64,000 bases of DNA. Source: Pyrinomonadaceae bacterium. GTDB taxonomy: Bacteria > Acidobacteriota > Blastocatellia > Pyrinomonadales > Pyrinomonadaceae. The translations under genes and the position numbers were made by a program. The stretch is from assembly GCA_041750855.1 (NCBI GenBank), contig JBGSYT010000172.1, forward strand, positions 6,802 to 70,801, read 5' to 3'. Under the pieces are notes generated by a model that saw only the letters and a list, made by a program, of their open reading frames with translations, had not been told where the DNA came from and did not search any database. Positions 27,479 to 45,642 of the stretch are shown here, in pieces. Each line of letters starts with the position of its first letter. Position 1 is the first letter of the stretch.

Positions 27479-28357
27479 ATGGCAAGCGTTTCAACATCGC
27501 CAGCATTAACGAATGACGCAGCAGTTCAACACGCAGATGAGATCGACCGTGGTGTCCGCTTCGGATTCGGAAAGAACTGGGCAGAGTTTCTAAGCGTTCT
27601 TGACGACGACCGGATCGAAAGAGCCGAACGGTCGCTCTGCGATATGTTGGACGTGGACGACTTTTCGGGCCGCACGTTTCTTGATATCGGATCGGGCAGT
27701 GGCCTGTTCTCATTAGCTGCAAGGCGACTTGGGGCAAAGGTGCTCTCATTCGATTTTGATACGGATTCAGTCGCGTGCACGACCGAGCTTTGCCGAAGGT
27801 ATTTTCCAGACGACGATTCGTGGCAAATAGAACAGGGTTCAGTGCTTGACGACAGCTACATGGAGTCGCTGGGGCAATTCGACATCGTCTATTCCTGGGG
27901 GGTGCTCCACCATACCGGGCAGATGTGGAAGGCCCTAGAGAACGCAGGTAAAAAGGTTGGGTCCGGCGGTAAGCTTTTTATCGCTATTTACAACGATACC
28001 GGTTCTCAGGCATCTCGTTGGCGATTCATCAAATCGACCTATTGCAAGCTGCCCATCCCCCTTAAGGCGCCATTTGCTGTTCTTGTCTCATTCCCGGACG
28101 AGGGGAAACGTTTCCTGTCGTTCTTGCTCAAAGGAAAACCGCTTGGATTCTTTGAGCATTGGAAAAATTATCGGAACGCGCGAGGTATGAGCCGCTGGCA
28201 CGACATTGTCGATTGGGTCGGCGGCTATCCTTATGAAGTGGCCGGGCCATCGGCGCTATTCGATTTCTTTAAGGCACGGGGCTTTGAACTTTCAGCGATA
28301 AGGTGCGACAACGTCGGTCTCGGATGCAATGAGATGGTTTTTGTTCGAAAGAGTTGA
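27479..28357 (+). CDS. Class I SAM-dependent methyltransferase, second copy
   Basis: Motif I is FLDIGSGSGLFSLAARRLGAKVLSFDFD. The internal ATG at 27479 avoids overlap with the DUF218 gene. Confidence 0.75.
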   Translation: MASVSTSPALTNDAAVQHADEIDRGVRFGFGKNWAEFLSVLDDDRIERAERSLCDMLDVDDFSGRTFLDIGSGSGLFSLAARRLGAKVLSFDFDTDSVACTTELCRRYFPDDDSWQIEQGSVLDDSYMESLGQFDIVYSWGVLHHTGQMWKALENAGKKVGSGGKLFIAIYNDTGSQASRWRFIKSTYCKLPIPLKAPFAVLVSFPDEGKRFLSFLLKGKPLGFFEHWKNYRNARGMSRWHDIVDWVGGYPYEVAGPSALFDFFKARGFELSAIRCDNVGLGCNEMVFVRKS

Positions 28358-28405
28358 AGTACTTTAGGTCTGATTCAAGAGACCGGAGAATAGAGACAGC
28401 GGTTT

Positions 28406-29566: not shown

Positions 29567-29594
29567 AAATTGCCGTCCATGCTTTAATAGAACC

Positions 29595-31175
29595 ATGAAA
29601 AGAAGCGACGTTCGTACCGGTTTATGCCGCTTTTTCGCTTTATCGCTTGCACTGGTTGCGTCGATGGCGTCAACTTCCTGTTCGGGATATGCATCGCAGG
29701 CCGGCTTTGAACTTGAAGACAAGTCGATCATCGTGCGAAAGGGAGGCGATCTACAGGCAGCTCTCGATAAGGCGACTCCGGGCGATACTATTTTTCTCGA
29801 GGCCGGTGCGACATTTAGGGGAGCTTTCAAGCTCCCGAAAAAGCCCGGTGCCGAATTCATAACCATCCGCTCATCGGCCGACGATCGTGAACTTCCGCCG
29901 CCGGGGACAAGACTCGATCCCGCAAAGTACAAAGATAAGCTCGCGACGATAATTTCCGACGTTCCCGGCGAACCCGCGATACTTGGTGTCGACGGAGCTC
30001 ATCATTTCCGATTTATCGCTATCGATTTCGGACCGACGATCGGTGGAATGTACAACATTATTCAGCTAGGTACCGGAAGTGAAAAGAGCGTCGATGATCT
30101 TCCGCATCATATCGAATTCGACCGGGTTTGGATCCACGGCAGCCCAACCGAGGGCCAGCGTCGCGGTATCGCTGCAAACGGGCGGCACATCAATGTCGTC
30201 AACAGTCATATTTCGGAGATCAAGCGAAAGGGCGACGAGAGCCAGGGCATAGCCGTTTGGGCAAGCGACGGGCCGGTCATTATCGTCAATAACTTCATCG
30301 AGGCCGCGGCGGAGAACATACTTTTTGGCGGTGCCGGTTCGTATCTGAAGCTGGTCCCGACCGACTGCATAGTTGATTCGAACCACTTGAGCAAACCTTT
30401 GGAATGGCTGGGCACGGACTGGGTCGTCAAGAACCTGTTCGAGATAAAGAACGGCCGCCGAATAACCGTGACGAATAACTTGATGACGAACAACTGGGCG
30501 ATGGGACAAGACGGAAACGCCCTGCTTTTCACGACCCGTGCTGACAATGGCAACGCGACGATCATCGAAGATATCGAATTTTCCGGCAATATCGTCCGCG
30601 GTTCCAGTGGTGGCCTGAATATTCTTGGCGGCGAAGGGGCCGGCGGCCATCGGCTGACGATCAGGAACAACATCTTCGACGATATCGGGCATGAAAAGTG
30701 GGGAGGCGGCGGCAATCTGATGAAGGTGACGGACTGGAACGGACTGGTCATCGAGAATAATACCGTCATGAACGCGGGCAGCATTGCCGTTGCCTATGGC
30801 CGGCCGGTCCGTGGTTTTGTTTTTCGATCGAACATCATTTTCGAAGGCGAGTACGGATTTTTCGGCGACGATCTTGGGCCGGGCCAAAAAGCGATCGACC
30901 GCTATTTTCCCGGCGGGACCGTGACGGGAAATATCATCATCGGCGGCAGCAAAGAAAGCTACCGTGAGCCGAACATCTTTCTTTCCGCCATCGGACAGGT
31001 GGGATTTGAGAACCCCAGTAAAGGAGATTACCGTCTCAGATCAACCAGCGCCTACATCAAAGCCGCTCCGGGCGGTAAGCCGATCGGCGCGTACTTGAAT
31101 CCCAACCTGGTTGGAACGAAAGCGCCTAAGATCTACGGCTCTGCAATCGATGTTAAAGAGAGTATCATCCCTTGA
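29595..31175 (+). CDS. Secreted/lipoprotein right-handed parallel beta-helix protein (pectate-lyase fold)
   Basis: It has a signal peptide with Cys (LVASMASTSC). It also has repeated PbH1-like turns (VNNFIEAAAEN, VTNNLMTNNW, FSGNIVRGSSGG, IRNNIFDDIG, IENNTVMNAG, FRSNIIFEG, VTGNIIIGGS). Confidence 0.6.
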   Translation: MKRSDVRTGLCRFFALSLALVASMASTSCSGYASQAGFELEDKSIIVRKGGDLQAALDKATPGDTIFLEAGATFRGAFKLPKKPGAEFITIRSSADDRELPPPGTRLDPAKYKDKLATIISDVPGEPAILGVDGAHHFRFIAIDFGPTIGGMYNIIQLGTGSEKSVDDLPHHIEFDRVWIHGSPTEGQRRGIAANGRHINVVNSHISEIKRKGDESQGIAVWASDGPVIIVNNFIEAAAENILFGGAGSYLKLVPTDCIVDSNHLSKPLEWLGTDWVVKNLFEIKNGRRITVTNNLMTNNWAMGQDGNALLFTTRADNGNATIIEDIEFSGNIVRGSSGGLNILGGEGAGGHRLTIRNNIFDDIGHEKWGGGGNLMKVTDWNGLVIENNTVMNAGSIAVAYGRPVRGFVFRSNIIFEGEYGFFGDDLGPGQKAIDRYFPGGTVTGNIIIGGSKESYREPNIFLSAIGQVGFENPSKGDYRLRSTSAYIKAAPGGKPIGAYLNPNLVGTKAPKIYGSAIDVKESIIP

Positions 31176-31798: not shown

Positions 31799-34700
31799 AT
31801 GTTAGGGCCATCGTATTCACTTTCGATGCTGCGTTTCCTTGAACTTCCGGCGCGACATCGCACTTGGTTCACACGCCCGTTGGTGGTGCTGTTACTTGTG
31901 TGGCCGCTTTCGTTCAACGTCGATTCAGTAGGTCAGATCAACCCCACACGAGAAAGCAAGCCGCCCATTTCGCTGCCAGATGTGAGGGCGAAAGATCCTC
32001 ATTCCGCATCTCAAGCGGGGGCAGGGGAACGACAGACGAGAATTGACGCCCTGGCGGGCCGGATCGCCGCAGCGGAAACCGAGGCCGAAGCAGACGCTTT
32101 GCTCCGAGCGGAATCTGATCTAGTGAGTGTCGAGTTAGCGCAGGCGCTGTTCTTCGAAACGCTTCGATTGAGGAATACGCCGGTCCCGCGGGAAAGGATC
32201 TTGACGGTGAGTCTCCGTCTGCTTCGGTATGTCGAGCGTTCCGAAATAGGGCCGGCGCGCGGCATTGCCCAACGCGGGGCAGGCGTTGCCTACTCCAATT
32301 TGGAAAACTGGGTTTTGGCCGAGCAGCATCTTTCGGTCGCAATATCGTTGTTCACCAGACAGGGGCTCGGCGGTCGGCAGGATGTCATCCGGTCATCCCT
32401 CGACCTGGCATCCGTATACCACCGTAAAGGCGATACCCGCCGAGCACTCGAACAATATCAGAAGGTGCGCATGCTCGCTCGCGATCAAGGCGATCGCGAA
32501 AGCGTAGTACAAGCCGGCAATGGCATGGCGGCTGTTTACCTTCAGATCGGGGATTTTGCGAATGCGTATTCAAATCTTGAGCAAAGTCTTTCTGTCGCGG
32601 AGACCCTGGTGGACAAGGGCCCCGAGTTGTCAACACTTGTACAGCTTGCATCGACCTTCCTTAATCAAGGCCGACTTGGAAAGGCTGTCGAAGCTCAGGA
32701 AAAGGCTTACCGAACAGCGGTGGAGTCCGGCTCCGCCGCACGCCTGAATTACTTGTTCCAGACGGCGGTCTTGCACATCAAACTGGGAGATCTTCCGACG
32801 GCATATTTGCGATTTCGACGGGTGATAGCGGAATCGGAGAAAGGCGGTGACCAGAGCCTTTATTTTTACTCGCTGCTTAATGTCGCCCAGATCAACGAAC
32901 GGTACGGACGCTACAAAAAGGCGGCCGAACTCTACCAACGCGTCATCGAGATCGCGGACGAGGGACTCAAGGATCCTTCATCGATCGCGGGTCGGATCTA
33001 TGTAACCGGCAAAGTCGAGGCCATCGCCAGGCTTGCGGAAATGCGCATAAGTCGCGGTGAAGAAAGGGAAGCGATCGACCTTTACAAGCAGAACCTGGAA
33101 GTTTTGGGTTCGGCCCAGACGGCATCCGAGCCGGACCCGAGATATCAATCGAAGGAGGCCTATGCTGCACTCGATGTATCGGTTCGTACGAGTTTGGCCG
33201 ACCTTTACTCTTCGCGTGGAGATCGATCTGAAGCAGAATCCCATTACTCGTCTGCGCTTGTTATCGCCGAGAAGATCCGCTCGCATTCGGGCTCAATAGA
33301 TACGCTGCTTAGTATGGCCCGGCATGCGGCCATCAATGGAGAGCCTGCGATCGCGGGTGCGTACCTTGTCCGCGCGGAAACGTATGTTCAGCGGCACGGC
33401 CGGCTTGATCAGCTCGTCAAGCTGAGGACGACCGAAGCCGAGGTGCTCGTCAAACTTGGACGGCCCGCGGCGGCCGATCTCAAGTTTCAGGAAGCACTAA
33501 GGATGTCCGAATCGCTTCGGACCGATGTCACAATGCCGGATCAGCGAGCGTCGTATTTTGCGGGCCTCTTCAGACCTTTCGACCAATACATTGATTTCCT
33601 GATGGAACGTCACGCGAAGCAGCCTGATGCCGGTTTCGACAGGCGTGCCTTCGACGTAAGCGAAAGGCGTCGGGCCCGCGCACTGCTCGATTCTCTTCGG
33701 GTTGCCCGTGCGGATATTCGGCAAGGTGTAGACCGTTCCTTGCTGGAGGAAGAGGAACGGATACGCGGTCAGATGAATTCGGCGGCACGCGATCATTTCG
33801 GTGGGGTTGAGCCCCTGCTCTTTAGCGTGGAAACAGACGGCGAACATCTGAGGGCCCCTGCCGGATCTCCGAAAACCGACATATCGTATTTGGCTGCAGA
33901 ACTAACACGGATTGAAACGGCAATCCGGAAACGAAGTCCCCGCTATGCAGAGCTGATGCAGCCGCGACCCCTGCGATCATATTCTATACAGGCACTCCTG
34001 GATGAAGACACGATCCTTTTGAACTACACCCTTGGAGAAAAACAGAGCTACCTGTGGGCGATCGACAGCAGATCCGTCAGCAGTTTCGTTCTCCCGCCTC
34101 GCGAAACGATCGAGAATCTGATCAAGGTGGGGTACGCGGGTATGAGCGACGACTCGATGGCGGAGGAACGGAACACCCAAGCTGTTCCTGAAGCCGAAAC
34201 GTTATCCCGCGTTCTTCTCGGGCCCGTGGCCGGTCTGATGGGGGGCCGCAGAATCGTCGTGGTCGCTGATGGAGCCTTGCAATATCTTCCTTTCTCGAGC
34301 CTACCCGATCCTCGGCAGCCGGACGCGTTTGGCCGTTCGATGCTGTTAGCAAACGAAATTCAGTTCGCACCATCTGCATCGGTCGTTTCTGTCCTTCGGG
34401 AGGATTTTCGGGGTCGAGAAAAGGCATCACGGTCCGTAGCAATTTTTGCCGATCCCGTTTTTTCAGAAAACGATGAAAGGTTAGGCGGCCGCACGGATGA
34501 GCGGGAGCTGAACGAGCGGTCCGCTGAGGAGTCGATCACTCGCGATCTTTTCCTCCCACGAATTGGCAAAGACGAAGATTGGAATGGAAAACCCAATATT
34601 GCGCGTTTGCCGTTCTCGCGCCGCGAAGCGGATGCGATCTTCGATAGCTCGCCCGCTGGAAGTTCGATCAAAGCAGTTGATTTCGAGGCCAGCCGGGAGC

Positions 34701-35176
34701 GGATGGCGAGCATCGATCTGTCCGCGTACCGGATCGTCCATTTCGCGACTCACGGCATCCTGAACAGCGAGCAGCCTGAACTTTCCGGAATAGTACTTTC
34801 ACTGGTGAACGAAAAGGGCGAGCCGGTGAACGGGTTCCTGCGGCTGAATGAGATCTACAACATGAAGCTTAATGCGGATCTCGTGGTACTCAGTGCTTGT
34901 CAGACGGCCCTTGGGAAAGAGGTTAGGGGTGAAGGGCTGATCGGCCTGACGCGCGGGTTCATGTACGCCGGCACCCCGAGAGTTGTCGCGAGCCTATGGA
35001 AGGTGGACGACGTGGCGACGGCGGAGTTGATGAAGATCTTTTATCAGAAAATGCTGAAGGAAAAGATGCGCCCGGCGGCGGCCTTGCGTGAGGCGAAGAT
35101 CACGATGATGAAGCAAAAGAGGTGGGCCGCGCCCTACTACTGGGCCGCCTTCGAGCTCCAGGGCGACTGGCGTTGA
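31799..35176 (+). CDS. TPR-repeat CHAT-domain protein 1 (caspase-like clan CD peptidase fold), probably exported
   Basis: It has a hydrophobic N-terminal segment (RPLVVLLLVWPLSF) and a long TPR array. The C-terminal CHAT core carries His (IVHFATHG) and Cys (LVVLSACQT). Confidence 0.85.
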   Translation: MLGPSYSLSMLRFLELPARHRTWFTRPLVVLLLVWPLSFNVDSVGQINPTRESKPPISLPDVRAKDPHSASQAGAGERQTRIDALAGRIAAAETEAEADALLRAESDLVSVELAQALFFETLRLRNTPVPRERILTVSLRLLRYVERSEIGPARGIAQRGAGVAYSNLENWVLAEQHLSVAISLFTRQGLGGRQDVIRSSLDLASVYHRKGDTRRALEQYQKVRMLARDQGDRESVVQAGNGMAAVYLQIGDFANAYSNLEQSLSVAETLVDKGPELSTLVQLASTFLNQGRLGKAVEAQEKAYRTAVESGSAARLNYLFQTAVLHIKLGDLPTAYLRFRRVIAESEKGGDQSLYFYSLLNVAQINERYGRYKKAAELYQRVIEIADEGLKDPSSIAGRIYVTGKVEAIARLAEMRISRGEEREAIDLYKQNLEVLGSAQTASEPDPRYQSKEAYAALDVSVRTSLADLYSSRGDRSEAESHYSSALVIAEKIRSHSGSIDTLLSMARHAAINGEPAIAGAYLVRAETYVQRHGRLDQLVKLRTTEAEVLVKLGRPAAADLKFQEALRMSESLRTDVTMPDQRASYFAGLFRPFDQYIDFLMERHAKQPDAGFDRRAFDVSERRRARALLDSLRVARADIRQGVDRSLLEEEERIRGQMNSAARDHFGGVEPLLFSVETDGEHLRAPAGSPKTDISYLAAELTRIETAIRKRSPRYAELMQPRPLRSYSIQALLDEDTILLNYTLGEKQSYLWAIDSRSVSSFVLPPRETIENLIKVGYAGMSDDSMAEERNTQAVPEAETLSRVLLGPVAGLMGGRRIVVVADGALQYLPFSSLPDPRQPDAFGRSMLLANEIQFAPSASVVSVLREDFRGREKASRSVAIFADPVFSENDERLGGRTDERELNERSAEESITRDLFLPRIGKDEDWNGKPNIARLPFSRREADAIFDSSPAGSSIKAVDFEASRERMASIDLSAYRIVHFATHGILNSEQPELSGIVLSLVNEKGEPVNGFLRLNEIYNMKLNADLVVLSACQTALGKEVRGEGLIGLTRGFMYAGTPRVVASLWKVDDVATAELMKIFYQKMLKEKMRPAAALREAKITMMKQKRWAAPYYWAAFELQGDWR
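34733..35176. repeat. Left arm of a 444-bp inverted repeat (3' end of CHAT gene 1)
   Basis: A hand alignment to the reverse complement of 40750..41193 gives about 55 mismatches in 444 nt. It includes a perfect 57-nt tract (35045..35101 versus 40825..40881). Confidence 0.85.
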
Positions 35177-35257
35177 GCGGACTTGGCCTTTTCGCTTTCG
35201 CCCCCAACGACAGCCCTCAATTGCGGGATGGTCAATGGGTAGTGCTTCGCGATGAGC

Positions 35258-35737
35258 TCACCGGGCGATTCCCGTGACCTGGTCGACTATCAACTGCCAG
35301 CGGCCGTCGCGCTTTTCCCATACGTGGACACTGCGGAAAGAATTTCCGAAACGCTTGGTGCCGTCGGCGAGTGTTGTAACTGCTCTCCCCGTCGCCGTTA
35401 CAATCGCGACATTCTTGAAAAGCCTGATACTCTGGTTAGAAATGACGAACTTCAGCGTGGAACCCACGGATACTTTTCGTTCCCGACTTGCCCGCTGCGC
35501 TTCGACATCCTGATCCCTTGTATACACTCGCCCGCTTGGGCCGACGTGGTAACTGTCGTCAGCAAGCAAATACCCGATCCTTTCCGCGTCGGAGTCCTCA
35601 TTGATCCTGTTCCACTCGACCTCAAGCTGCTCGATCTCTCGAAGGTCGGACAAATGGGAGGCAGCCTCGTTCCGTTGGCCAAAAGTAGCCATGGTCACCA
35701 GCAAGAGAGAGAAAATTATCAAGAAAGGTTTAAACAT
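35258..35737 (-). CDS. Secreted NTF2-like (SnoaL/DUF4440-type) protein
   Basis: It has a signal peptide (MFKPFLIIFSLLLVTMATFGQ). The C-terminal WEKRDGRWQLI pattern is typical of DUF4440-like NTF2 folds. Confidence 0.6.
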   Translation of the reverse strand: MFKPFLIIFSLLLVTMATFGQRNEAASHLSDLREIEQLEVEWNRINEDSDAERIGYLLADDSYHVGPSGRVYTRDQDVEAQRASRERKVSVGSTLKFVISNQSIRLFKNVAIVTATGRAVTTLADGTKRFGNSFRSVHVWEKRDGRWQLIVDQVTGIAR

Positions 35738-35775
35738 AAAGCCTCCGCTTACAGAAAATGTCAGTAAATAGCAAC

Positions 35776-36150
35776 CTATTTTGCCTTCGAATAAACGTAG
35801 ATCACACCGATCATCAAGGCAAACCCCGCACCGACGCCGAGCACCACCTTGGCTGTGTTCGGCCAGCCTCGTTTTTTCACATTCTCAACGTCGCGGTAAG
35901 AAATTATGCTCGACTGGGTTTGTTTGTCCAGAGTGACATCGAATGAATCATCCAAAATCTGGCTGATGCTGCCTCTAAGTTTCTTCCCGTCTTTGAGGAA
36001 TACTGTAACCTTTGCACCGGCCCCTAGCTTGTTGACCTGGGCCTTGATCCGCTGATCACCCGTGGAAGACTCTGACTGCCCTAATAAAATCTGTGCATTT
36101 GCGAAAAACAAGATCGCTCCGAGAAAAAGAATAGTCGCTTTGCTAAACAT
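35776..36150 (-). CDS. Small exported protein, paralog A: signal peptide + ~55-aa beta-rich domain + C-terminal TM anchor
   Basis: The ATG at 36150 is preceded by GGAGGA. The protein is ~80% identical to paralog B across the core (KVTV.LKDG.K.+GSISQIL.DSFDVTL ... SSIISYRDVENVK+RGW). Confidence 0.65.
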   Translation of the reverse strand: MFSKATILFLGAILFFANAQILLGQSESSTGDQRIKAQVNKLGAGAKVTVFLKDGKKLRGSISQILDDSFDVTLDKQTQSSIISYRDVENVKKRGWPNTAKVVLGVGAGFALMIGVIYVYSKAK

Positions 36151-36247
36151 TGTTCCTCCAACCTGACTCACCAGCCTGCCGCGGCCCGTTCGCGAAAAGC
36201 CGCTATCGTCATCAAGACGAATATGATCACCGCGGTCTCATGGTAAA

Positions 36248-36658
36248 TTAACGTGGACTATTTAGAAAAACGGGCCCCAAATCATCCATCTTAGCGAGAG
36301 CTACCACAATGACCACGACGACCACAACAGCTCCGATACCGACGCCAAGGCCGATCTTGGCGGCGTTCGACCAGCCACGCCTTTTTACGTTCTCAACGTC
36401 GCGGTAAGAGATGATGCTCGACTGGATCTGGTTTTCCAAAGTGACATCGAATGAATCCTCGAGTATTTGACTGATGCTGCCCTTCACCTTGGTCCCGTCT
36501 TTAAGAATTACAGTTACCTTCGCACCAGACCCAAGCTTGTTGACCTGGGTCCTGATCCGCTGGTCGGCCGCCATCGCGTCTGATTGGCCCAGAAGCATAC
36601 TGGTGTTTGCGAACAACAAGACAATCGCAAGAAATAGCCTTAACGTATTGTTGGACAT
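36248..36658 (-). CDS. Small exported protein, paralog B (tandem duplicate of A)
   Basis: The ATG at 36658 is preceded by AGGAGG. It has the same architecture as paralog A. Confidence 0.65.
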   Translation of the reverse strand: MSNNTLRLFLAIVLLFANTSMLLGQSDAMAADQRIRTQVNKLGSGAKVTVILKDGTKVKGSISQILEDSFDVTLENQIQSSIISYRDVENVKRRGWSNAAKIGLGVGIGAVVVVVVIVVALAKMDDLGPVFLNSPR

Positions 36659-36698
36659 TGATCCTCCTGATCACTCTGACTGGCCTAAAGCCCTTGTT

Positions 36699-37874
36699 CT
36701 ATTGCCTATCGATATGTAAATAGTACTCGCGTATCGTCTCCATATTTCCGTCAGCCGAGCGCCCCTCGAGCACAACAATATAGTCCTTACGTGACAACGA
36801 GTTTGCCGGAACAGTAACGGCAAGGGTTTTCGTGCCTGCGGTCGCAGCCGTCCTTAAATTCGATGCGCGCCACACCGTGCCTCCTCCGACCGTGGAAATT
36901 CGAACTGAATAAGTGGAATAAGCCCCGCCGCCGAACACCATACGGATGACAACGTTCTGCGTGGCTGAACCTATCTCGGCGGTATTTCGTCTGTTAGCGG
37001 ACCGCGACGCCGAATCGAGCGTCACAGTTTCGGTACGCACGCCGGCTATTTCGGTCCTTGGATCAGGTTGTTTCTGGAGTTCGGGAGTCGGCACAGGCAC
37101 GCCCTTGGTCGCAACATCGGGGAGCTTCGATTCCGGCGAATCCTTGTGCGACATTTGAGGTGCTCGCGGGGTCGGGGAGGAACCTGGAATCTGAGCGATC
37201 GTGTCCGAGGGAGTTGCTCGATCGGGGTTGACCGGCACCTCGCGTTCCTCAACCGGATTCAATTGTGACGGTTGATCACCGCTCTGGTGGGCGATGCTTT
37301 GGGAATTGCCATCAGTTTCCGGGCCATCCGGCCCCTTGACTAGAATTGGAGTTGTCTCCGACGGCACAGGAGGCTCGACCTGGGAATCCGCAATATTTTC
37401 AGGGATTTCTGGCTTAACGAGCGTCCACAACCCAACAGCCAGGACGGCAACAAGTATCCCGGCGGCTGCGAACCTGAACGGAGTGAAGATCATTCTTAGG
37501 CTCTCAAGGACACCCGCCGGTTTAGGCGGGGCGACGACCGGGTCGGACACGGGTACCCGCGATCGGTCGGCAATGCTCGAGATCGAATCGACAAAATCCC
37601 TTGACTCGGCTAGTCGCTTCCTGCGTGAGTTGGTTGAAAGGAAGTGGGGCTCCATGCGGCGGCGTTTTTCGGGATCCAATTCGTTTCGTGAGTAAAGGTC
37701 GAGAACCTCGTCCTTGACAGCGAGAAAATTGTTAAAGAAAGAATCGTCGTCGAAATACGCGGTTTCGAAACGCTCTTGCTCAGCCTCGGTCAGCTCGCCG
37801 AATAGATAGCGCTCGCACAATTCTTCATCGAACGGTAGATTGGCCGATGTGCCGTTTTCATTTGTTGTGCTCAT
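36699..37874 (-). CDS. Putative single-pass anti-sigma factor with a Pro/Ser/Thr-rich extracytoplasmic linker and a C-terminal beta-rich domain
   Basis: The ATG at 37874 forms an ATGA overlap with the sigma stop. The N-terminal motif CERYLFGELTEAEQERFE resembles anti-sigma N-domains. It has one TM (FAAAGILVAVLAVGLWTLV). The ORF track start at 37922 would overlap sigma by 52 nt. Confidence 0.6.
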   Translation of the reverse strand: MSTTNENGTSANLPFDEELCERYLFGELTEAEQERFETAYFDDDSFFNNFLAVKDEVLDLYSRNELDPEKRRRMEPHFLSTNSRRKRLAESRDFVDSISSIADRSRVPVSDPVVAPPKPAGVLESLRMIFTPFRFAAAGILVAVLAVGLWTLVKPEIPENIADSQVEPPVPSETTPILVKGPDGPETDGNSQSIAHQSGDQPSQLNPVEEREVPVNPDRATPSDTIAQIPGSSPTPRAPQMSHKDSPESKLPDVATKGVPVPTPELQKQPDPRTEIAGVRTETVTLDSASRSANRRNTAEIGSATQNVVIRMVFGGGAYSTYSVRISTVGGGTVWRASNLRTAATAGTKTLAVTVPANSLSRKDYIVVLEGRSADGNMETIREYYLHIDRQ

Positions 37875-38482
37875 ATGATCGCACCTCGTTTTAGCGAGCG
37901 GGAAATGCACTCGTCGGTGCATTTTGCCACTTCCCGGCGCAGGCGGCTCGCCCGCAGACGCAACGCGTTCATCGAAGAATTTAACCGCTCCGCTTGCCTT
38001 CTGCGCTGCTCGATCTTCGCGCCTTTCTCTTCTCGATAATACTCAATGATGAAAATGCGCGTGCTCTCAGCGAGCTGACTTAGACACTCATCCAGGCAAT
38101 CGAGCTTTTGCTCTAGTTCGATGCGGGCTTCGTCGGTGCCGTTATTAGAGTGGCGGTCCGCCACAGTTCTCTCGTCCAGCTCGACCGGTTGTTTCGAGAG
38201 GCCCCGCGACGCCTCGATCCAGACGTACCGGGCAACGCCGTAACAATAATTACCAAAATTATGGATCGTCTCGCCCTCGGTGATCTTGCGCATGACCCGA
38301 TCGAAGGTCTCGTCGGCATGTTCTTCGGGGGTACTGCTGCCGCGCGCTTCGAAGAATTCCAACAGTTTGCGTCGCGTGATCTCGTAATGCCGCCCCGCAC
38401 GTTCGCGGTCGGGGTCGAGATTCGCAAGAAGAAGGTCGAATGCTTCCGGCGTGACTGTCCATGTCGAGGCACGAATACCCAT
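37871..38482 (-). CDS. ECF-type sigma-70 family RNA polymerase sigma factor
   Basis: It is ~200 aa. The region-2-like segment is EEHADETFDRVMRKI ... YCYGVARYVWIE. The region-4-like HTH is LAESTRIFIIEYY ... ERLNSSMNALRLRASRLRREV. An anti-sigma-like gene is coupled downstream. Confidence 0.75.
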   Translation of the reverse strand: MGIRASTWTVTPEAFDLLLANLDPDRERAGRHYEITRRKLLEFFEARGSSTPEEHADETFDRVMRKITEGETIHNFGNYCYGVARYVWIEASRGLSKQPVELDERTVADRHSNNGTDEARIELEQKLDCLDECLSQLAESTRIFIIEYYREEKGAKIEQRRRQAERLNSSMNALRLRASRLRREVAKCTDECISRSLKRGAII

Positions 38483-38490
38483 TGGATCTA

Positions 38491-39279
38491 TTAGCTAGCC
38501 TTTCCGGTATGCGGCGACGTTATGACTATTTGAGGATCCAGCTCCCATTCGTATATCCAGCCGTTCGTTGATGTCTTGGAATCATATATCCAATCGAGGC
38601 GCGTTTGGGCCTTTACGAGCGCGCCGTTGCTTGTGTCGAACCAAAAGGTGACGTTGGCCCGAAGCTCGTGGGGCCCGGGCCGCAGCATTTCAGGCGAAAT
38701 GCCGTTGTAGTTATACACTCGGAGTGTCCTCCCGTTCACGGTTTCCTCCCTTTGGTAAGTAACAACGGCGGCCTGATTTGCGTGGCCGAGCGCAAACGCG
38801 GGATCCATAAGCTTCATGGAATGTCTCATCGCCGCCGCTGCTGCGGAGTTGTACTTTGCCCTCAGCTCTGTGTACTTCTTCACGTCGTTTTCAGCCAATG
38901 CCTTTTTTTCGGCCGCCGACCGTTCGGCTTCGGCCGCTTTGTACTCATCCTTTGTCTGAACCGTCCACGGGCCGTCGCCCGACAATTCGTAGATCGAATT
39001 CCCCGCGATCACAGCTTGAGCTACGGAGCTGCGGCCGTTGCCGCTGACTGTCGTTCGAACGTATCCGCGACTGCTCACTTCCGTCGTGGTTACCATATCC
39101 GGCTGCGGTATTGTGCGGGTTTGCGTAAAACGATATGAGCTCCCTCGCGTCAATTCACTGTTTACCCTAAGTCCGTCTCTTAGCATCCGAGTGAAGTCGG
39201 CGAACCGCACAAAACTTCCTTGCCCGAGCAAAGCCGGGGCAAAAACCGAAAAACTCAACGCGAACATTAGGAGTCTCAT
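38491..39279 (-). CDS. Secreted protein, LolA/RseB-like (tentative), paralog 1
   Basis: The signal peptide is MRLLMFALSFSVFAPALLGQ from the ATG at 39279. Alternative starts lie at 39357 (ATG) and 39423 (GTG). The C-terminal TFWFDTSNGALVKAQ ... YEWELDPQIVI matches its neighbour paralog. Confidence 0.5.
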   Translation of the reverse strand: MRLLMFALSFSVFAPALLGQGSFVRFADFTRMLRDGLRVNSELTRGSSYRFTQTRTIPQPDMVTTTEVSSRGYVRTTVSGNGRSSVAQAVIAGNSIYELSGDGPWTVQTKDEYKAAEAERSAAEKKALAENDVKKYTELRAKYNSAAAAAMRHSMKLMDPAFALGHANQAAVVTYQREETVNGRTLRVYNYNGISPEMLRPGPHELRANVTFWFDTSNGALVKAQTRLDWIYDSKTSTNGWIYEWELDPQIVITSPHTGKAS

Positions 39280-39346
39280 ACCTATTGCAGCGATTCGCGT
39301 CCTGCGTCGGATCGCCCAAAGTCCAACTTTACCTAATAGTCTTTCT

Positions 39347-40087
39347 TCATTTAACATAGGCTGGGGCTTCAATGCGGATCGAAGGGTCAAGCTCCCACTC
39401 CTGTATCGATTGCGTTCCCGCACCCGTTTTCCTGTTGATCTGCACGTCTTCTAATTTCACCAATCGACCGCTATCCGCCAGCCAGTATCGATTCGTTTGT
39501 TCCAGTTCGAACACGGTGCCGGGTTCCTTGCCTGGGTTCGAGGAAAATATAGTCCTTACGTATATCAGCAACACCTCTCCTTTGAACACCGCTGTCCCGA
39601 CCTTGAACTCGAACGTTGCTTCCGGTCTTAAAAACCTGAAAGTGCCGGGAGGTCCGGTCCTGGTGGTTTCAAACGGAGCTGCGGGCGGTATTGCCAACCC
39701 GTAATGTTCGCGGTCCTTACGTTGCCAGGCCCCGCGATTCCATCTGACAAATGTATCGTGGCCGACCGAGATGCTTTCCTGCTCAGATTTCTGATAAGGC
39801 GAATCAACGATCGTCAAATGCCGAGAGGATCCCACCGTGTCAAATTCCCGGATCTCCGAAACTCGTCCGAGTGGCTTTCCCTCGCCGTAATTCGACACTA
39901 TGCTTTTCGTGATCCGCCTTGCCTTTCCCTGCCACTCCGCCGGCGGACGACTGAACCCTTGCATCCCCCGGTCGAACATGTGAACGCTCACCGTTTGTTC
40001 CGCGCCTACACCGCCGGGACGCTCCACCTGAGCCTCTGCGATGCCAAGAGCCCACATCAGTATTGTTAGAATGATCAGTGGTCTCAT
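39347..40087 (-). CDS. Secreted protein, LolA/RseB-like (tentative), paralog 2
   Basis: The signal peptide is MRPLIILTILMWALGIAEAQ. The C-terminus is NRYWLADSGRLVKLE ... QEWELDPSIRI. It has an ATGA overlap with the upstream gene at 40084-40087. Confidence 0.5.
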   Translation of the reverse strand: MRPLIILTILMWALGIAEAQVERPGGVGAEQTVSVHMFDRGMQGFSRPPAEWQGKARRITKSIVSNYGEGKPLGRVSEIREFDTVGSSRHLTIVDSPYQKSEQESISVGHDTFVRWNRGAWQRKDREHYGLAIPPAAPFETTRTGPPGTFRFLRPEATFEFKVGTAVFKGEVLLIYVRTIFSSNPGKEPGTVFELEQTNRYWLADSGRLVKLEDVQINRKTGAGTQSIQEWELDPSIRIEAPAYVK

Positions 40088-40509
40088 CTGCTTTTCCTGA
40101 ACCCGTCTGGGAAAGGATCGATCTTGACCGTCGCAACCGCGATGGCAACTATCGTAATAACCGCAGCCACGCCAATTCCGGTTCCCAAAGCTATCAACGA
40201 TGCGTTCGACCAGCCGGCCTTTTTAATTCTGGCTACAGCATCATAATCGAAGGCCAACGGCTGCTCTCCTGGCTTTCTCACCAGCTCAAACGAATTGTCG
40301 CCGATGCGGCTTACAATTCCCTTGATCTCCGTCCCGTTAAGGAGCTCTATTTTTACTTTCTTCCCAACGCCTTGACCCAAGACGAAAGATCTGGCAATCG
40401 CAGCCCGCCGGGCCGATGCCGTAGTCCCTTGAGCCTGCGCGAGGTGCAAGCTGGTAAACGTGATCGTCAGGAAACAGCCTAAAACGATCGAGATAATGGT
40501 CCGGTGCAT
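40084..40509 (-). CDS. Small exported protein, paralog C (diverged relative of A and B)
   Basis: GGAGG lies 8 nt upstream of the ATG at 40509. It has a signal peptide, the core KVKIELLNGTEIKGIVSRIGDNSFELV ... AFDYDAVARIKKAGW, and a C-terminal Gly/Ala/Ile-rich TM. Confidence 0.6.
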   Translation of the reverse strand: MHRTIISIVLGCFLTITFTSLHLAQAQGTTASARRAAIARSFVLGQGVGKKVKIELLNGTEIKGIVSRIGDNSFELVRKPGEQPLAFDYDAVARIKKAGWSNASLIALGTGIGVAAVITIVAIAVATVKIDPFPDGFRKSR

Positions 40510-40749
40510 CTAAGGTCCTCCGTTCGGCCTGGATATTCGGTCGAAGGCGTTCCGGACAGAGATGGATCCGTCAGCAAAATTAAGATCCCTTGCGAATTCG
40601 ATCAAAGTCAGGCACTTCGTTCTGAGGTACTCCTTGGGGCCGACCTCGCTGTGAGAGTTTCGCAAAAGCCCTTCCGCGTCGCTTTGATCCCTTAAACATA
40701 CCGCCGCCGGATCGCCTTCCCTATTAAGTGAAGAAACAGAGGAATCATG

Positions 40750-41193
40750 TCAACGCCAGTCGCCCTGGAGCTCGAACGCGGCCCAGTAGTAGGGCTCCGC
40801 CCACCGCTTTTGCTGCATCATCGCGATCTTCGCCTCACGCAAGGCCGCCGCCGGGCGCATCTTTTCCTTCAGCATTTTCTGGTAAAAGATCTTCATCAAT
40901 TCGGCGGTTGCGACATCGTCCACCTTCCACAGGCTTGCGACAACTCTGGGGGTTCCGGCGTACATGAACCCACGCGTCAGGCCGATCAACCCTTCACCGC
41001 GCACCTCTTTGCCCAAAGCTGTCTGGCACGCACTCAGCACCACCAGGTCTGCATTGAGCTTCATGTTGTAGATCTCGTTCAGCCGCAAGAACCCGTTCAC
41101 CGGCTCGCCCTTCTCATTCACCAGCGACAACACGATCCCCGAAAGCTCAGGATGCTCACTGTGCAGAATACCGTGGGTTGCGAAGTGGACGAT
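40750..41193. repeat. Right arm of the 444-bp inverted repeat (3' end of CHAT gene 2)
   Basis: See the left arm. This arm encodes the His/Cys-containing C-terminal module of CHAT protein 2. Confidence 0.85.
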
Positions 41194-44100
41194 CCCGTAT
41201 TTCGTGAGGTCTGCATTCAGAAGCTTTTCGCGATCAGCGTTGAAGTCGAGAGCCTTAAGTGAATCCCTCGACAGCGCGGAGGCAAATATCTCTTCAGCTT
41301 CCTTCCGCGTGAATGGAAGACGTGGAATTGATAAAGATTCTCCTGGTTTGCCTATAAAATTGAAAGCCCGTTCCAGCAATATCCTGTTCAGATCGGGTTT
41401 TGCGGGTCCGTTGATTTTCGGTTGCTCTGCCCTGACGGCTGGCAGCCGCTCGTCGGTTTCCGAAAATACCGGGTCTGCAAAGATCGCGATAGTTTTTGTC
41501 GGCGGCTTTCGATCAGATATATCGCGACGTTGAACATCGAGCACGGAAGCCGAAGGTAAATTAACGGTCTCGAACTTGACGGCCAACGGCACGGAATCTG
41601 TATTTTGCTTCCCATTCTTCGAATTGGATTCCGGCGGCAGTGGCAGAGAACCGAACGGGAGATACTGCAAAGCGCCGTCCGAGACAATTACCAATCGCTT
41701 GCCTTTCAATTGCGAAAGAACACTAGGGGGTAATAGTTTTCGGCTCAAGGGCGAGGCGACTTGGGTAAATTCCGCAGCGATTGTTTCGTCCGATGCCCAG
41801 CGCTTTCCGTCATTAAGCAAACCTACAACACGTCGCACATCATTCTCGAGCTCGGCCCGACCGGGGAGCTCATAGTTTTTCAGTGAAGTAGAGGTGACAA
41901 CCCACAAAAAACTACGTTTGCCGCCCAAGGCATACTCGAGCAGAACCGTGTCGGCCTGAAGCAGATCGCGTTGTATTTCGCTTGCAGTCAGGGGCTGCGG
42001 CTGAGTCAATGCAGCATAACGAGGACTTTTCAAACGAATCTGCGCTTGGTTATTGCGATATTCAAAGGTGAGCGAATCGATCTCTTTTTTCAGCGCGGCG
42101 GCCTGTTCGGCGGTATATTTACCACTCCATAGTCGCGTTTGTTGTTCAGCCCTCTCGTTGAGTTGTTTCTGCAGCGTGCGCTCACGCTCTAATAATTCGG
42201 GCACAGCGCCTTGATCAATTTGCGTACGCGATTCGTTCAGGAGTTCTAGCAGCGAACGCGCTCTGCGGCGTTGGCTTATCTGGAAAGCCTGGACGTCATG
42301 GCCTTCTGCAGGCTGTTCGCTGTGCATCTGCATCAAAAGATCGATATAGGCTTCATACGTTCCCTCGTGCGTGGCAAAAAAGGCTGAGCGTGTATCCTGT
42401 CCGGCAATGCTGGCGCGGGTTAATTCGATTGCGACGATCGCCTCTTCAAATGCGATCCGTGATTTTTCGAAATGCTTCAAGCCATGATAAGCAAGGCCGA
42501 CCAAATAAAGTGCACGGGGAAGATCTGTGCGGTTGCCGATTTCTCTTAGCAGTGCTGCGGCCCGTTCGGCAGATTCTAGGGCCTGCACGAACTCGCCTTT
42601 CCCGGCGTAGGGATAAGCAATATTAATTAGCGCGGTCGCGATTTGAGACTTATTTCCGATTTCTTCGCTTAGTCTTAGAGTCTTTCGGCGGTATTCAAGC
42701 GCTTTGTCGTGATCGCCTTGTATTTGATAGAGGTTGCCGATCGCTTCCATTGTGAAAACGATCTGCCTTTTATTGCCGCCCGCTTCGTTCAACATCAAGC
42801 ATTTTTTATAAATGTACATCGCTTCCGCGAATTTCCCTTCCAGATACAAAATGCCGCCGATTTTCTCGAGAGCATTCGCGATCAGAGCTTGGTTTTTTAG
42901 TTCTTCGGATAAAATCAGACTTTCCTTATAAAACTCCGACGCCTTCCCTCTGTTTCCTAGTGCATGATGAAGTAGTCCATACGTCATAAAAATATGCGCC
43001 TTCAGCTCTTTGCTATCCAAGGATTCACTGATGGAGAGGGCCCTTTCAACATATTCCATCGAGTTAGTGAACTCGCCGAGCAGCCGGCTGTTGAGGGCCA
43101 TTAAATTGAGCGTCCAGGCGCTATTAGATTTATGGCCTGCCTCTTCACTTAGAGCCAAAGCCTTTCGGTTGTATTCTAAAGACGTCATGAAATTGCCTTG
43201 AAGAAAATAGACTTGGCCGATAGCATACAAAGCAGTAGCTTGCGCTGGCTTACTACCCGTTTCTTGAAAAATAATTAGGCCTTTCTGATAAGCTTCGATG
43301 GCGTCTGCGTAGTTGCCCGTGTGTAGATGAATCGATCCGATGTTGTATAGACTGCTGGCGACTCTTGACTTGACACCTAATTCATGAAAAAGTACCTGGC
43401 ATTTCTGAAAAGCTTCGATGGCGTCTGCGTACCTGCCCGTTTGTTGATGAATTGATGCGATGCTATGAAGTATGTCGGCGGCCCGCCCTTTGTTACCAAG
43501 CTCTTGAAATAGCGTGAGACTTCGCTCGTAAAATTCGAATGCCTGTGGCAAATGCTTTTGTTGCTGATGGATCTCTCCAAGATATAGGAGGCTATCCGCG
43601 AGTCTTACGTTGTCGCCTAACGATTCTCTAAGTTCTAGACTTTGCCGTAAGTACATTAACGCTTGATTTAATTCCCGCTGGTTGAAGAGTACAACCCCAA
43701 TGTTATAGACCGCGTCCGAGACACCGATTTTGTCGCCAATTCGTTCTGCCAGTTGTAAAGTAAATTGAGAGACGATGAGAGACGATGGGAATTTGTTTTG
43801 ATCGCGCAAACGTCGCCCGTGCCCATTCAGTTCGCGAATCAACTCTACCGTTACGAGGTCTTTGTCTTTGACCAGCATCGCCGCTCGCGCTTCTTCGGAA
43901 TCGGCGAAAACCAACGCCGCCGCAAAGCATTTTACCTTGTCTCGATCTTTCTCCTGCGAGGTCGCCGCTCGTATCGCCTCAATGCGTATCTGATAGCGTC
44001 CCGTCGTCGTCTTTTCTCGCGGACGCACTTCGATTCGATAGCTACCCGACCCGTTGGCGACAAACGAAAGAGCCTCCGATCCTTTTGAGCCGTTCGGACT

Positions 44101-44403
44101 ATCTACTTCCGCTAGACGTTCGCCTCCCGGCGCAAAAAGCACTAGTACAACGCCTACTGTGCGTTGTACGACAACGACGGAAACGAATTGTCCGGCTTTC
44201 GGCTCCAATGTATAGAGGTGAATATCCCCGCCTTTTAACTCCCCTTCAATTGGCTTGTCGGGTTCGAGTAACGACGGTGTCTGTGTTGTCGGATCGATAT
44301 TGGTTTGGGCGAAGCTAAGGACCGCATGTTGGGTAGCAAGCAGAACAATACAAATCAGGCGAACCGTCACAATTGGGGAAATGGTATTTCGGCAAACTTG
44401 CAT
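40750..44403 (-). CDS. PPC-like domain + TPR-repeat + CHAT-domain protein 2 (caspase-like), probably secreted
   Basis: The signal peptide is VRLICIVLLATQHAVLSFAQ. The N-terminal beta-sandwich resembles a pre-peptidase C-terminal domain (GDIHLYTLEPKAGQFVSVVV ... GSYRIEVRP ... GRYQIRIE). It has a long TPR array and a CHAT core with IVHFATHG and LVVLSACQT. Confidence 0.85.
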   Translation of the reverse strand: MQVCRNTISPIVTVRLICIVLLATQHAVLSFAQTNIDPTTQTPSLLEPDKPIEGELKGGDIHLYTLEPKAGQFVSVVVVQRTVGVVLVLFAPGGERLAEVDSPNGSKGSEALSFVANGSGSYRIEVRPREKTTTGRYQIRIEAIRAATSQEKDRDKVKCFAAALVFADSEEARAAMLVKDKDLVTVELIRELNGHGRRLRDQNKFPSSLIVSQFTLQLAERIGDKIGVSDAVYNIGVVLFNQRELNQALMYLRQSLELRESLGDNVRLADSLLYLGEIHQQQKHLPQAFEFYERSLTLFQELGNKGRAADILHSIASIHQQTGRYADAIEAFQKCQVLFHELGVKSRVASSLYNIGSIHLHTGNYADAIEAYQKGLIIFQETGSKPAQATALYAIGQVYFLQGNFMTSLEYNRKALALSEEAGHKSNSAWTLNLMALNSRLLGEFTNSMEYVERALSISESLDSKELKAHIFMTYGLLHHALGNRGKASEFYKESLILSEELKNQALIANALEKIGGILYLEGKFAEAMYIYKKCLMLNEAGGNKRQIVFTMEAIGNLYQIQGDHDKALEYRRKTLRLSEEIGNKSQIATALINIAYPYAGKGEFVQALESAERAAALLREIGNRTDLPRALYLVGLAYHGLKHFEKSRIAFEEAIVAIELTRASIAGQDTRSAFFATHEGTYEAYIDLLMQMHSEQPAEGHDVQAFQISQRRRARSLLELLNESRTQIDQGAVPELLERERTLQKQLNERAEQQTRLWSGKYTAEQAAALKKEIDSLTFEYRNNQAQIRLKSPRYAALTQPQPLTASEIQRDLLQADTVLLEYALGGKRSFLWVVTSTSLKNYELPGRAELENDVRRVVGLLNDGKRWASDETIAAEFTQVASPLSRKLLPPSVLSQLKGKRLVIVSDGALQYLPFGSLPLPPESNSKNGKQNTDSVPLAVKFETVNLPSASVLDVQRRDISDRKPPTKTIAIFADPVFSETDERLPAVRAEQPKINGPAKPDLNRILLERAFNFIGKPGESLSIPRLPFTRKEAEEIFASALSRDSLKALDFNADREKLLNADLTKYGIVHFATHGILHSEHPELSGIVLSLVNEKGEPVNGFLRLNEIYNMKLNADLVVLSACQTALGKEVRGEGLIGLTRGFMYAGTPRVVASLWKVDDVATAELMKIFYQKMLKEKMRPAAALREAKIAMMQQKRWAEPYYWAAFELQGDWR

Positions 44404-44592: not shown

Positions 44593-45642
44593 TTACGGCC
44601 TCGTCCCATTCTCAAATCCAAGATTCACTGTCTGCCTTACCTCTTTTTTCTTCGACATTCGGTTCGGGGTATCCATCTGCATTTCCGCGGCAGAAAGTTG
44701 GTTTGTGACGGCCACGTCCTTGCCCACGACCTCGAGTTTCACGTCATCGACCCAAACGCGGCCGGTGCCGCTTAGGAGGGTGCCGAACAGTATGTTGACA
44801 GTTTCCGGTGGGACGTCCAGCACAACCTCGTATTGCTTCCAGTCGGTTGTGCCTTTGACCGCTCGCGGCATCATATTGTCGAAACCGAGAAGCCGCTTTT
44901 CGCCGTCGAGGCGCATCCACAGACCGGCAGCTTCAGCAGTGTCGGTCTTGAGCCAGCCTGACAGACGAACGCGTTTTCCTAGATAATCATCGGCGGCGAT
45001 CGCTTGAGCGAGTGAACCAAAGCCTTCGGCCGGTCCGCACGCGAACGCAAGCAACGCGCTTGCGTTTCCACTGCGTTTAACGGCGGTGTCCACCATCATC
45101 GAATATCGTTCTGCATTGCCGATCGGCGTTCGGATCCAGCCGGCCGGCATTCCCGCAACAACCTCCGGGACCGGTTTCGGAAGATCGGAACTGTGCTCGG
45201 CGACCAGTTTCCACCGGCCGTCGCGTTTCGCGAAAATGTTCGTGTAGCGTTCCTCAATCTCGCGGACCATGGATCCGCGGGTCATTTTTGTGACGATCTT
45301 GTAGTTCGCGATCGCGGTGTCGGCACCGGCCGCAATTACTTTTAGATCATCGATCTGGTATGAAAACTTCGCTCTGTCAGCTTCGGGCGTTTTGAAGTAT
45401 GCACGAAACTGCCGATTGGCGAGCTCAAATCTTTCGTATCCATTTCGCTCGCTGTAATAGAAACCATCATCCGCCGGCAGCGCCATTACCGCTGCCTCAT
45501 CGCCCCTGTGCCAGGCATGGTAGTAGTCCCGCACGACCTTCGCGATCTCAGCTTCCACCGTGCCGTTTTGCGCCAGAGTATCTTGAACTCCGCAAGCCGC
45601 AAGTAGTCCCAACATCACAATTAGGAAGATGTTTTGTTTCAT
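44593..45642 (-). CDS. Lipoprotein with an N-terminal NTF2-like (DUF4440-type) domain and a C-terminal jelly-roll-like domain
   Basis: The lipobox is LGLLAAC. The NTF2-like pattern is FAKRDGRWKLVAEH. The C-terminal beta-sandwich-like segment is VRLSGWLKTD ... WKQYEVVLDVP ... VWVDDVKLEV. Confidence 0.6.
   Translation of the reverse strand: MKQNIFLIVMLGLLAACGVQDTLAQNGTVEAEIAKVVRDYYHAWHRGDEAAVMALPADDGFYYSERNGYERFELANRQFRAYFKTPEADRAKFSYQIDDLKVIAAGADTAIANYKIVTKMTRGSMVREIEERYTNIFAKRDGRWKLVAEHSSDLPKPVPEVVAGMPAGWIRTPIGNAERYSMMVDTAVKRSGNASALLAFACGPAEGFGSLAQAIAADDYLGKRVRLSGWLKTDTAEAAGLWMRLDGEKRLLGFDNMMPRAVKGTTDWKQYEVVLDVPPETVNILFGTLLSGTGRVWVDDVKLEVVGKDVAVTNQLSAAEMQMDTPNRMSKKKEVRQTVNLGFENGTRP

Follow-up and report, generated by a model that had tools for sequence, protein, structure and literature searches.

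A stretch of 64,000 nucleotides from a Pyrinomonadaceae bacterium (assembly GCA_041750855.1, contig JBGSYT010000172.1, positions 6,802 to 70,801; hereafter the window, with positions counted from its first letter) encodes two convergent CHAT-domain proteins with tetratricopeptide repeats (TPR-CHAT), CHAT1 and CHAT2, whose genes end in the two arms of a long inverted repeat. We suggest that this repeat, which comprises the last 147 codons of each gene (here the module), is likely the footprint of segmental gene conversion between old TPR-CHAT paralogues, followed by very strong purifying selection. Such an event is ordinary gene conversion, of a known kind, and we found no report of such conversion in the TPR-CHAT family.

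The repeat search detected one long inverted repeat within 30-46 kb of the window, with arms at 34727..35176 (plus strand) and 40750..41199 (minus strand), 450 nt each, 88% complementary and spaced by 5573 nt; across the repeat, p corresponds to 75926-p. Two convergent open reading frames (ORFs) have the arms as their 3' ends, CHAT1 (31799..35176, plus strand) and CHAT2 (40750..44403, minus strand). Each arm consists of the last 147 codons and the stop codon, and extends from the catalytic-His strand to the end of the protein with the Cys within. The codon alignment of the two genes, ungapped and counted back from the stop, contains 56 nt differences in the last 450 nt (55 inside 34733-35176 and an extra one at 34730), 45 of them at third, 10 at first and 1 at second codon positions, and 5 of the 147 residues differ (N/H, Q/H, T/A, K/Q, A/E). 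The longest uninterrupted identity for homologous recombination is a perfect 57-nt tract (35045..35101, plus strand, partner 40825-40881), and other perfect tracts of 27 and 24 nt were found. The first-pass annotation of the window had described a 444-nt repeat with about 55 nt differences, 5 residue differences and the same 57-nt tract, and these figures hold.

DNA identity steps up at 34733, from 43-53% in the three 30-nt windows before it to 77-83% after it, and the homology of CHAT1 and CHAT2 ends exactly at both TGA stops, with 30% identity past them. A recent segmental duplication was considered and rejected, since homology past the stop codons would be expected and none was found. The Nei-Gojobori rates for the module are 0.75 synonymous (dS) and 0.024 nonsynonymous (dN), with dN/dS of 0.03 (~0.01-0.02 in mid-module windows); upstream of the module dS is saturated and dN is 0.84. 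Protein identity upstream is 0.38 over 330 residues and ~30% over the whole upstream part. The identity step at the His, first noticed in a hand alignment, is present in the formal one, and dN/dS is far from 1.

Orthologue fragments were collected from metagenomes with the whole CHAT domain of CHAT1 (P0121 and P0122 of the CHAT1 type, P0126 of the CHAT2 type), and neighbour-joining trees were built with 500 bootstraps. The tree of the 225 residues upstream of the module grouped CHAT1 with P0121 and P0122 (100%) and CHAT2 with P0126 (100%), with 0% for CHAT1 and CHAT2 together. The module tree (147 residues) joined CHAT1 to CHAT2 (92%), with 0% for both orthologue groupings, and in a larger taxon set this joining had 94% in the module versus 0.3% upstream. 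Separate phylogenies of the N-terminal and C-terminal parts had been proposed in the first-pass annotation as a means of detecting conversion; their topologies conflict, and conversion is detected.

The two modules are 97% identical in protein and 88% in DNA. Protein identity of the CHAT1 module to P0121 and P0122 is 90% and 86%, that of the CHAT2 module to P0126 and L002a (a CHAT2-type gene from the closest genome locus, L002) is 82% and 90%, and any module from another genome, orthologues included, has DNA identity of at most 81% to either arm. The paralogues are older than the species split and yet closer to each other than to their orthologues, suggesting that DNA must have been exchanged. 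At identical residues the same codon is used with a frequency of 0.64 in the module versus 0.30 upstream; a conservative estimate based on codon usage within the arms predicts 0.46 (P=2.5e-5). The tree conflict, this excess of shared codons and the dN/dS of 0.03 support old gene conversion with very strong purifying selection, one of the two explanations offered in the first-pass annotation.

The pair was compared with 80 related loci from genome assemblies, and 77 CHAT tails, the pair included, were aligned (module and 330 upstream residues). CHAT1/CHAT2 is the most extreme outlier of the 2926 pairs of tails (z=6.75), with module identity of 0.966 versus 0.698 +/- 0.037 for different-genome pairs with upstream identity of 0.35-0.40. 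The genome-assembly search for relatives gave a best module identity of 86-90%; a metagenome scan with the last 50 residues, swamped by a common peptide pattern, gave a best value of 71%, and an exact-match search with the CHAT1 protein gave no hit. The conservation step is found family-wide. An unbroken conserved block begins at IVHFATHG in all 75 other aligned homologues, family mean pairwise identity per 10 residues is 0.46-0.98 in the module versus a patchy 0.05-0.75 upstream, and the module is ~70% identical even across Acidobacteriota and cyanobacteria. The sharp boundary at the His proposed in the first-pass annotation is present, but it is partly ordinary family-wide constraint.

The arm is composed of two layers. 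A maximum-difference scan placed the breakpoint at codon 98 of the module: of the identical residues, 50/93 before it and 34/38 after it use the same codon (permutation p=0.001). The part after the breakpoint, module codons 99-147 with the stop codon, lies at 35027..35176 (plus strand) in arm 1 and, mapped through the repeat, at 40750..40899 (minus strand) in arm 2. Here the same-codon frequency is 0.89 (P=6e-5 versus the conservative expectation) and the grouping of CHAT1 with CHAT2 has a bootstrap of 91%. The three-way comparison with L002a assigns 15 changes to the branch of L002a or the stem, 2 to that of CHAT2 and none to that of CHAT1: CHAT1 and CHAT2 share 15 codon states unlike L002a and differ mutually at 2. 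Codons 99-147 are among the less conserved module stretches family-wide (0.46-0.75 per 10 residues), and from these silent sites they would clearly be a younger tract than codons 1-98. This younger tract retains six nt differences, all within its last 75 nt, so that exchange is not demonstrably ongoing. The 57-nt run lies inside it and is by itself only marginally unusual when the local rate is considered (permutation p=0.006 for the arm as a whole, but 0.04 for its last 75 codons). The first-pass annotation took the run as a hint of ongoing short-patch conversion; a later patch does exist and covers approximately the last 49 codons, not just the run, but its being ongoing is not demonstrated.

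Several points weigh against conversion. Codons 1-98 give CHAT1 and CHAT2 together a bootstrap of only 53%, they are star-like with L002a (19, 14 and 15 changes), and their excess of shared codons is marginal (0.54 vs 0.44 by the conservative expectation, P=0.04). CHAT1, CHAT2 and P0121 mutually differ at 2-5 of these 98 residues by hand count, and the subclade is hyperconserved. High GC content at third codon positions (GC3) raises chance codon identity, and paralogues beyond the window in the source genome could be the true donor. Rates were estimated only by Nei-Gojobori and trees only by neighbour-joining. For codons 1-98, judging from their silent sites, constraint alone could be sufficient, and the case for conversion is weaker there. 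The same-codon frequency in codons 1-98 is 0.54 for CHAT1/CHAT2, 0.38-0.41 versus the equally GC3-rich P0121 and 0.51-0.57 versus L002a. At the silent sites of these codons the CHAT1 module is nearer to L002a (0.51) than to its own orthologues P0122 (0.45) and P0121 (0.38), from which we infer a donor of the CHAT2 lineage. Codons 1-98 of L004/L005, a pair from different genomes, are also 97% identical at similar silent divergence. An extra genome-specific constraint on codons 1-98 was considered and is unneeded, as L004/L005 show the same 97%.

A similar pattern was detected in other genomes. In the tandem pair L002a/L002b the same-codon frequency rises from 0.28 upstream through 0.40 in codons 1-98 to 0.85 in codons 99-147, and a like 3'-end excess was found in L034a/b (from a cyanobacterium) and L001a/b. 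The module of P0126 groups with L001a/b, and its upstream part is sister to CHAT2. The 3' tracts and the P0126 discordance suggest that modules tend to follow the genome and sensor parts the paralogue type; the L087 pair, only 73% identical, is an exception. Adjacent pairs were considered as general proof of concerted evolution and rejected: seven other loci have very similar modules, and for most of them, where the upstream parts cluster by genome as well, tandem duplication of recent date is the explanation. The independent evidence for conversion elsewhere is only the 3' silent-site excess (L002, L034, L001) and the P0126 discordance.

The arms are anomalous in GC3 as well, at 0.77 for CHAT1 and 0.80 for CHAT2; the remainder of the respective genes has 0.59 and 0.51, and the other window ORFs of 300 aa or longer all have 0.43-0.65. 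The rise in CHAT2, from 0.49 to 0.80, coincides exactly with the module edge. The CHAT1 and CHAT2 tails have the largest GC3 excess of the 77 (family mean excess +0.045). With changes polarised by four outgroups, 13/15 shared-derived third-position changes in codons 1-98 are AT to GC, and changes later than the split of the arms are evenly divided between the two directions, AT-to-GC and GC-to-AT, suggesting that the enrichment predates the divergence of the arms. Residue conservation (translational accuracy) was rejected as the source of the high GC3, with conserved upstream codons at 0.58-0.60 and variable module codons at 0.78. GC-biased conversion as a family-wide trait was also rejected, as GC3 is not raised in the other adjacent pairs that carry conversion tracts. 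GC-biased repair during past repeated exchange and a GC-richer donor copy both fit the rise; no such donor was found, the best outside modules having at most 81% DNA identity. Antisense ORFs of 171 aa each are present at 40747-41262 (plus strand) and 35252-35767 (plus strand), opposite the CHAT2 arm and the DUF4440 gene of the cassette described below, and on the strand opposite the CHAT1 arm the corresponding ORF is not open. The open antisense ORF 40747-41262 fits the high GC3 of the CHAT2 arm.

The following course of events would explain the repeat. CHAT1 and CHAT2 belong to different paralogue lineages, each with its own orthologues elsewhere, and the 147-codon module of CHAT1 would have been overwritten from the CHAT2 lineage, or both modules from a third copy of that lineage; no more than the C-terminal half of the CHAT domain, which is the catalytic one, would have been exchanged. 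The direction would accordingly run from CHAT2 to CHAT1. Probably at least two events occurred. The first would be old and would have included the whole module; silent changes in it approach saturation, which would date it roughly to the divergence from the L002 organism. The second, younger one would have covered approximately the last 49 codons. The conserved block is presumably the only stretch where the diverged paralogues retain enough DNA identity for heteroduplex formation, and tract ends would be limited by homology. After each event purifying selection would have held the protein nearly fixed as silent sites drifted. The inverted orientation would be a by-product of gene order and not a device.

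Constraint without exchange of DNA, by which selection kept the catalytic half of two old paralogues 97% identical, is an improbable source of the repeat. It agrees with the conserved block starting at the His motif in 75/75 other homologues, with the ~70% identity of Acidobacteriota and cyanobacterial modules, and with codons 1-98, which are nearly identical in P0121 and near-saturated and star-like at silent sites. Paralogues at 97% and orthologues at 82-90% are, however, impossible for a split that preceded speciation, and the reading is contradicted in codons 99-147, less conserved family-wide and yet with 34/38 identical codons. Module DNA identity (88% vs at most 81% elsewhere), the bootstrap (92% in the module vs 0% upstream) and the derived GC3 shift common to both arms also speak against it. 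The first-pass annotation had offered a shared partner or substrate, which both proteases must fit, as the other explanation. Such a partner could be, for example, the periplasmic part of the co-encoded anti-sigma factor, and selection would keep the modules alike. The module holds the His-Cys dyad and all downstream of it, a single sigma/anti-sigma pair lies between the genes, dN/dS is very low in mid-module windows (~0.01-0.02), and TPR-CHAT control of extracytoplasmic function (ECF) sigma factors is known, as in DdvA (PMC11506125). We nevertheless give this explanation little credence, as selection on protein can not yield common synonymous codons or a GC3 shift, the same residues are conserved in cyanobacterial homologues from loci without a sigma gene, and codons 1-98 are at the high end but inside the range of constraint (97% in L004/L005). 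A shared partner is unneeded; it could add to purifying selection but would not be the cause of the repeat.

A foreign or third-copy donor, that is, a GC-richer CHAT gene (another paralogue or a horizontally acquired one) that overwrote both arms, is unlikely, although the GC3 of the arms (0.77-0.80, against 0.59/0.51 in the rest of the genes and 0.43-0.65 in other ORFs), the step at the module edge of CHAT2 and an enrichment older than the divergence of the arms would suit it. No such donor was found, codon sharing between the arms and the GC3-rich P0121 and L139 does not rise above saturation, the nearest module to the arms at silent sites is that of L002a, whose GC3 is not high, and GC-biased repair in repeated arm-arm exchange gives the same pattern. 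The first-pass annotation also raised, and rated unlikely, the use of the arms as recombination sites at which the 5.6-kb sigma cassette between them flips from being co-directional with CHAT2 to being co-directional with CHAT1. The geometry permits it, as a crossover within the arms flips 35177-40749 and leaves both genes intact, and perfect tracts of 57, 27 and 24 nt are available. But the arms differ by 12% (by ~16% over their 5' two thirds) and frequent exchange would homogenise them, no recombinase, integrase or transposase family was detected in the 34 window ORFs scanned (12.0-15.9 and 18.7-63.5 kb), and the present orientation is the usual CHAT, sigma, anti-sigma order of dozens of loci. 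Two modules occur in 10/139 related loci, all ten of them direct pairs, with no comparative sign of flipping, and we regard a working inversion switch as very improbable; an occasional inversion through RecA could still occur. A broader speculation, to which we assign a low probability, would treat the catalytic half as a shared cassette: recurrent, possibly GC-biased conversion would unify it within a genome as TPR sensor halves diversify, several sensors would lead to one proteolytic output on one anti-sigma factor, and the inverted geometry would allow rare flipping of the sigma cassette. Segmental conversion between the old paralogues remains our preferred explanation.

CHAT1 (1125 aa) has a hydrophobic signal-like N-terminal segment and Pfam matches to CHAT (E=1.3e-68) and TPR_12 (E=1.5e-26), and is the likely recipient of the module. 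CHAT2 (1217 aa) has a signal-peptide-like N-terminus and matches to CHAT (E=6.6e-68) and TPR_12 (E=5e-79); it heads a CHAT-sigma-anti-sigma operon and likely represents the donor lineage. The PF12770 scores of the two proteins are 232 and 230 bits versus a curated cut-off of 24. Proteolytic activity of both is putative, with the His-Cys dyad intact in the sequences. A sequence search of solved structures gave TPR matches only, with no CHAT domain detected, and a predicted model and fold search were therefore used instead. The AlphaFold model of the CHAT domain (325 residues, 46 aligned sequences; predicted local distance difference test 82.9, predicted template modelling score 0.86) is a single caspase-like alpha/beta fold, with H185 after strand 177-183 and C234 after strand 228-231, both invariant in the 46 sequences. 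The module starts inside the His strand (E177-183) and holds C234 and every later helix; as modelled, it is half of one fold and not an independent domain, so that in both proteins an N-terminal half that has diverged has to fit onto one and the same conserved C-terminal half. The top PDB fold matches of the modelled domain are the craspase TPR-CHAT protein (7y84_C, E=3e-10), DdvA (8rot_A, E=4e-8) and separase. A 189-aa ORF at L138 (202-771, on a 1.2-kb metagenomic contig) is almost entirely CHAT module, with in-frame stops before it, and is either a truncated pseudogene or a stand-alone module.

Eight genes lie between the arms, all on the minus strand, behind CHAT2. The divergent ECF-like sigma factor (37871..38482, 203 aa) matches TIGR02989 (E=8e-13, 48.6 bits vs cut-off 124.6) and TIGR02937 (E=8e-5, 22.3 vs 42.9), below the curated cut-offs and with no Pfam sigma-domain match; these sub-threshold scores suggest that it is ECF-like but fits no curated ECF family. 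It is followed by a putative membrane anti-sigma factor (36699..37922, 407 aa) with, as read from the sequence, a zinc-finger-like N-terminus, one hydrophobic segment, a Pro-rich linker and a C-terminal domain, and with a weak zf-HC2 match (E=0.006, 17 bits vs cut-off 22). A sigma homologue adjoins the CHAT gene in 68/139 related loci, usually directly downstream of CHAT on the same strand and then followed by an anti-sigma homologue. The sigma-bearing loci of the genome collection are all from Acidobacteriota, with 0 cyanobacterial loci having a sigma gene. CHAT2 and the cassette match this common gene order, suggesting that they form the usual operon and that CHAT1 is an extra convergent paralogue. 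By analogy to DdvA (PMC11506125) and Csx29 of craspase, a plausible function would be signal-dependent cleavage of the anti-sigma factor by periplasmic TPR-CHAT proteins.

At L002 (3053-17121) one strand carries CHATa, DUF4440, CHATb, a homologue of the 246-aa cassette protein, sigma, anti-sigma, an Exo_endo_phos homologue and a small membrane protein. Relative to this closest genome locus the convergent CHAT1 is a rearranged state.

The other cassette genes encode a small membrane-anchored protein (40084-40509, 141 aa), a 246-aa protein (39347-40087) with a 37% homologue at the same position in L002, and a 310-aa protein (38491-39423), all three without a family match. The 310- and 246-aa proteins have a common C-terminal motif, EWELDP.I.I..P (BLASTP E=5e-4), and their ORFs, called from the first start codon, overlap by 77 nt. 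Two small membrane-anchored paralogues (36248-36658 and 35776-36171, 136 and 131 aa) are tandem duplicates, 68-73% identical. The small paralogous proteins of 131, 136 and 141 aa each have a signal-like N-terminus and a C-terminal hydrophobic anchor, and this trio has weak sub-threshold matches to the Hfq and ISP1_C profiles. The last cassette gene encodes a DUF4440/SnoaL-like protein (35258-35737) and ends 82 nt from the CHAT1 stop codon. DUF4440/SnoaL-like proteins are found at both ends of the CHAT2 operon region (35258-35737 and 44593-45642), and the distal one has a 61% homologue between both CHAT genes of L002.

A second sigma/anti-sigma pair at 46876-48683 was considered and set aside, having no similarity to the cassette proteins. 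The Rfam search of the window gave no match, and promoter-like and terminator-like sites in or between the arms were no commoner than in shuffled sequence. Upstream of CHAT1 (12018-31175) is a polysaccharide biosynthesis cluster with a Wzy-like O-antigen ligase, asparagine synthase paralogues (18681-20570 and 22697-24595), heparinase II/III, glycosyltransferase, methyltransferases, UDP-GlcNAc 2-epimerase and a beta-helix protein. Downstream (48752-51238 and 55015-63515) are genes for an 828-aa WD40-repeat protein, a CarboxypepD_reg and outer-membrane beta-barrel protein, a tricorn-like S41 protease and an S15 X-Pro dipeptidyl peptidase, with no evident link to the repeat.

Segmental conversion in multigene families is known to leave tracts that end where homology falls. 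The repeat is alike in that the tract edge falls where the continuous conserved block begins, the module tree reflects the genome and the tree of the rest the paralogue type, and 3'-end tracts are found in several genomes. It is unlike in that the module is half a fold with no separate domain, and in that homology limitation is inferred. The TPR-CHAT proteins would be a multidomain sensor-protease family evolving in two modes, the sensor part by paralogue type and the catalytic part by genome. A tree that relies on the CHAT domain only will assign orthology wrongly among them.

Concerted evolution of the tufA/tufB type, as outlined in part of a survey of gene conversion (PMC6053082), is similar in having paralogues closer than orthologues, at silent sites too, in different genomic contexts and under strong purifying selection. 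The present case differs from that outline: only the 3' 13% of the gene is included, the exchange dates far back without continuous renewal (12% DNA divergence), upstream the two genes have little in common, and the copies are 5.6 kb apart and convergent. The TPR-CHAT family does not seem to be listed in the survey's bacterial gene table. GC-biased gene conversion in bacteria has been described between strains and genome-wide (Lassalle et al. 2015, PMC4450053). The arms resemble it, with GC3 raised locally, only in the recombined tract, and 13/15 silent changes from AT to GC, but here the exchange is between paralogues of one genome. Other adjacent CHAT pairs have no GC3 excess, so that the link to GC-biased conversion is unproven. 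The GC3 jump, seen in the converted tract only, may be a natural trace of GC-biased repair acting between paralogues in bacteria.

The Hin and Gin invertases, the fim switch and shufflons use short repeats and a dedicated recombinase encoded nearby. As in these invertible switches, inverted repeats flank a gene cassette in the window; unlike them, the repeat is a diverged coding sequence of 450 nt, with no recombinase family in the 34 ORFs scanned.

We consider the GC3 anomaly and the widespread CHAT-sigma-anti-sigma operon most worth attention. In the literature searched, no experimental study of a separate TPR-CHAT protein with sigma and anti-sigma genes was found. In the craspase study, the TPR-CHAT protein Csx29, which is bound to the CRISPR effector, reportedly takes part in ECF sigma factor control with Csx30 and RpoE. 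DdvA/DdvS of Myxococcus xanthus is a case of TPR-CHAT control of an ECF sigma factor, with DdvA fused to an anti-sigma factor (PMC11506125). CHAT1 and CHAT2 resemble both systems, which are among the best fold matches of the modelled domain, in the intact His-Cys dyad and the linkage to an ECF-like sigma factor with a putative membrane anti-sigma factor. Unlike DdvA, the TPR-CHAT protein here is separate, with a signal-like N-terminus, and not fused to the anti-sigma factor; unlike Csx29, it is not bound to a CRISPR effector. Taken together, the separate TPR-CHAT protein with a divergent ECF-like sigma/anti-sigma pair, found at 68/139 loci, is plausibly akin to the DdvA and craspase systems, whose common theme is that proteolysis sets a sigma factor free.

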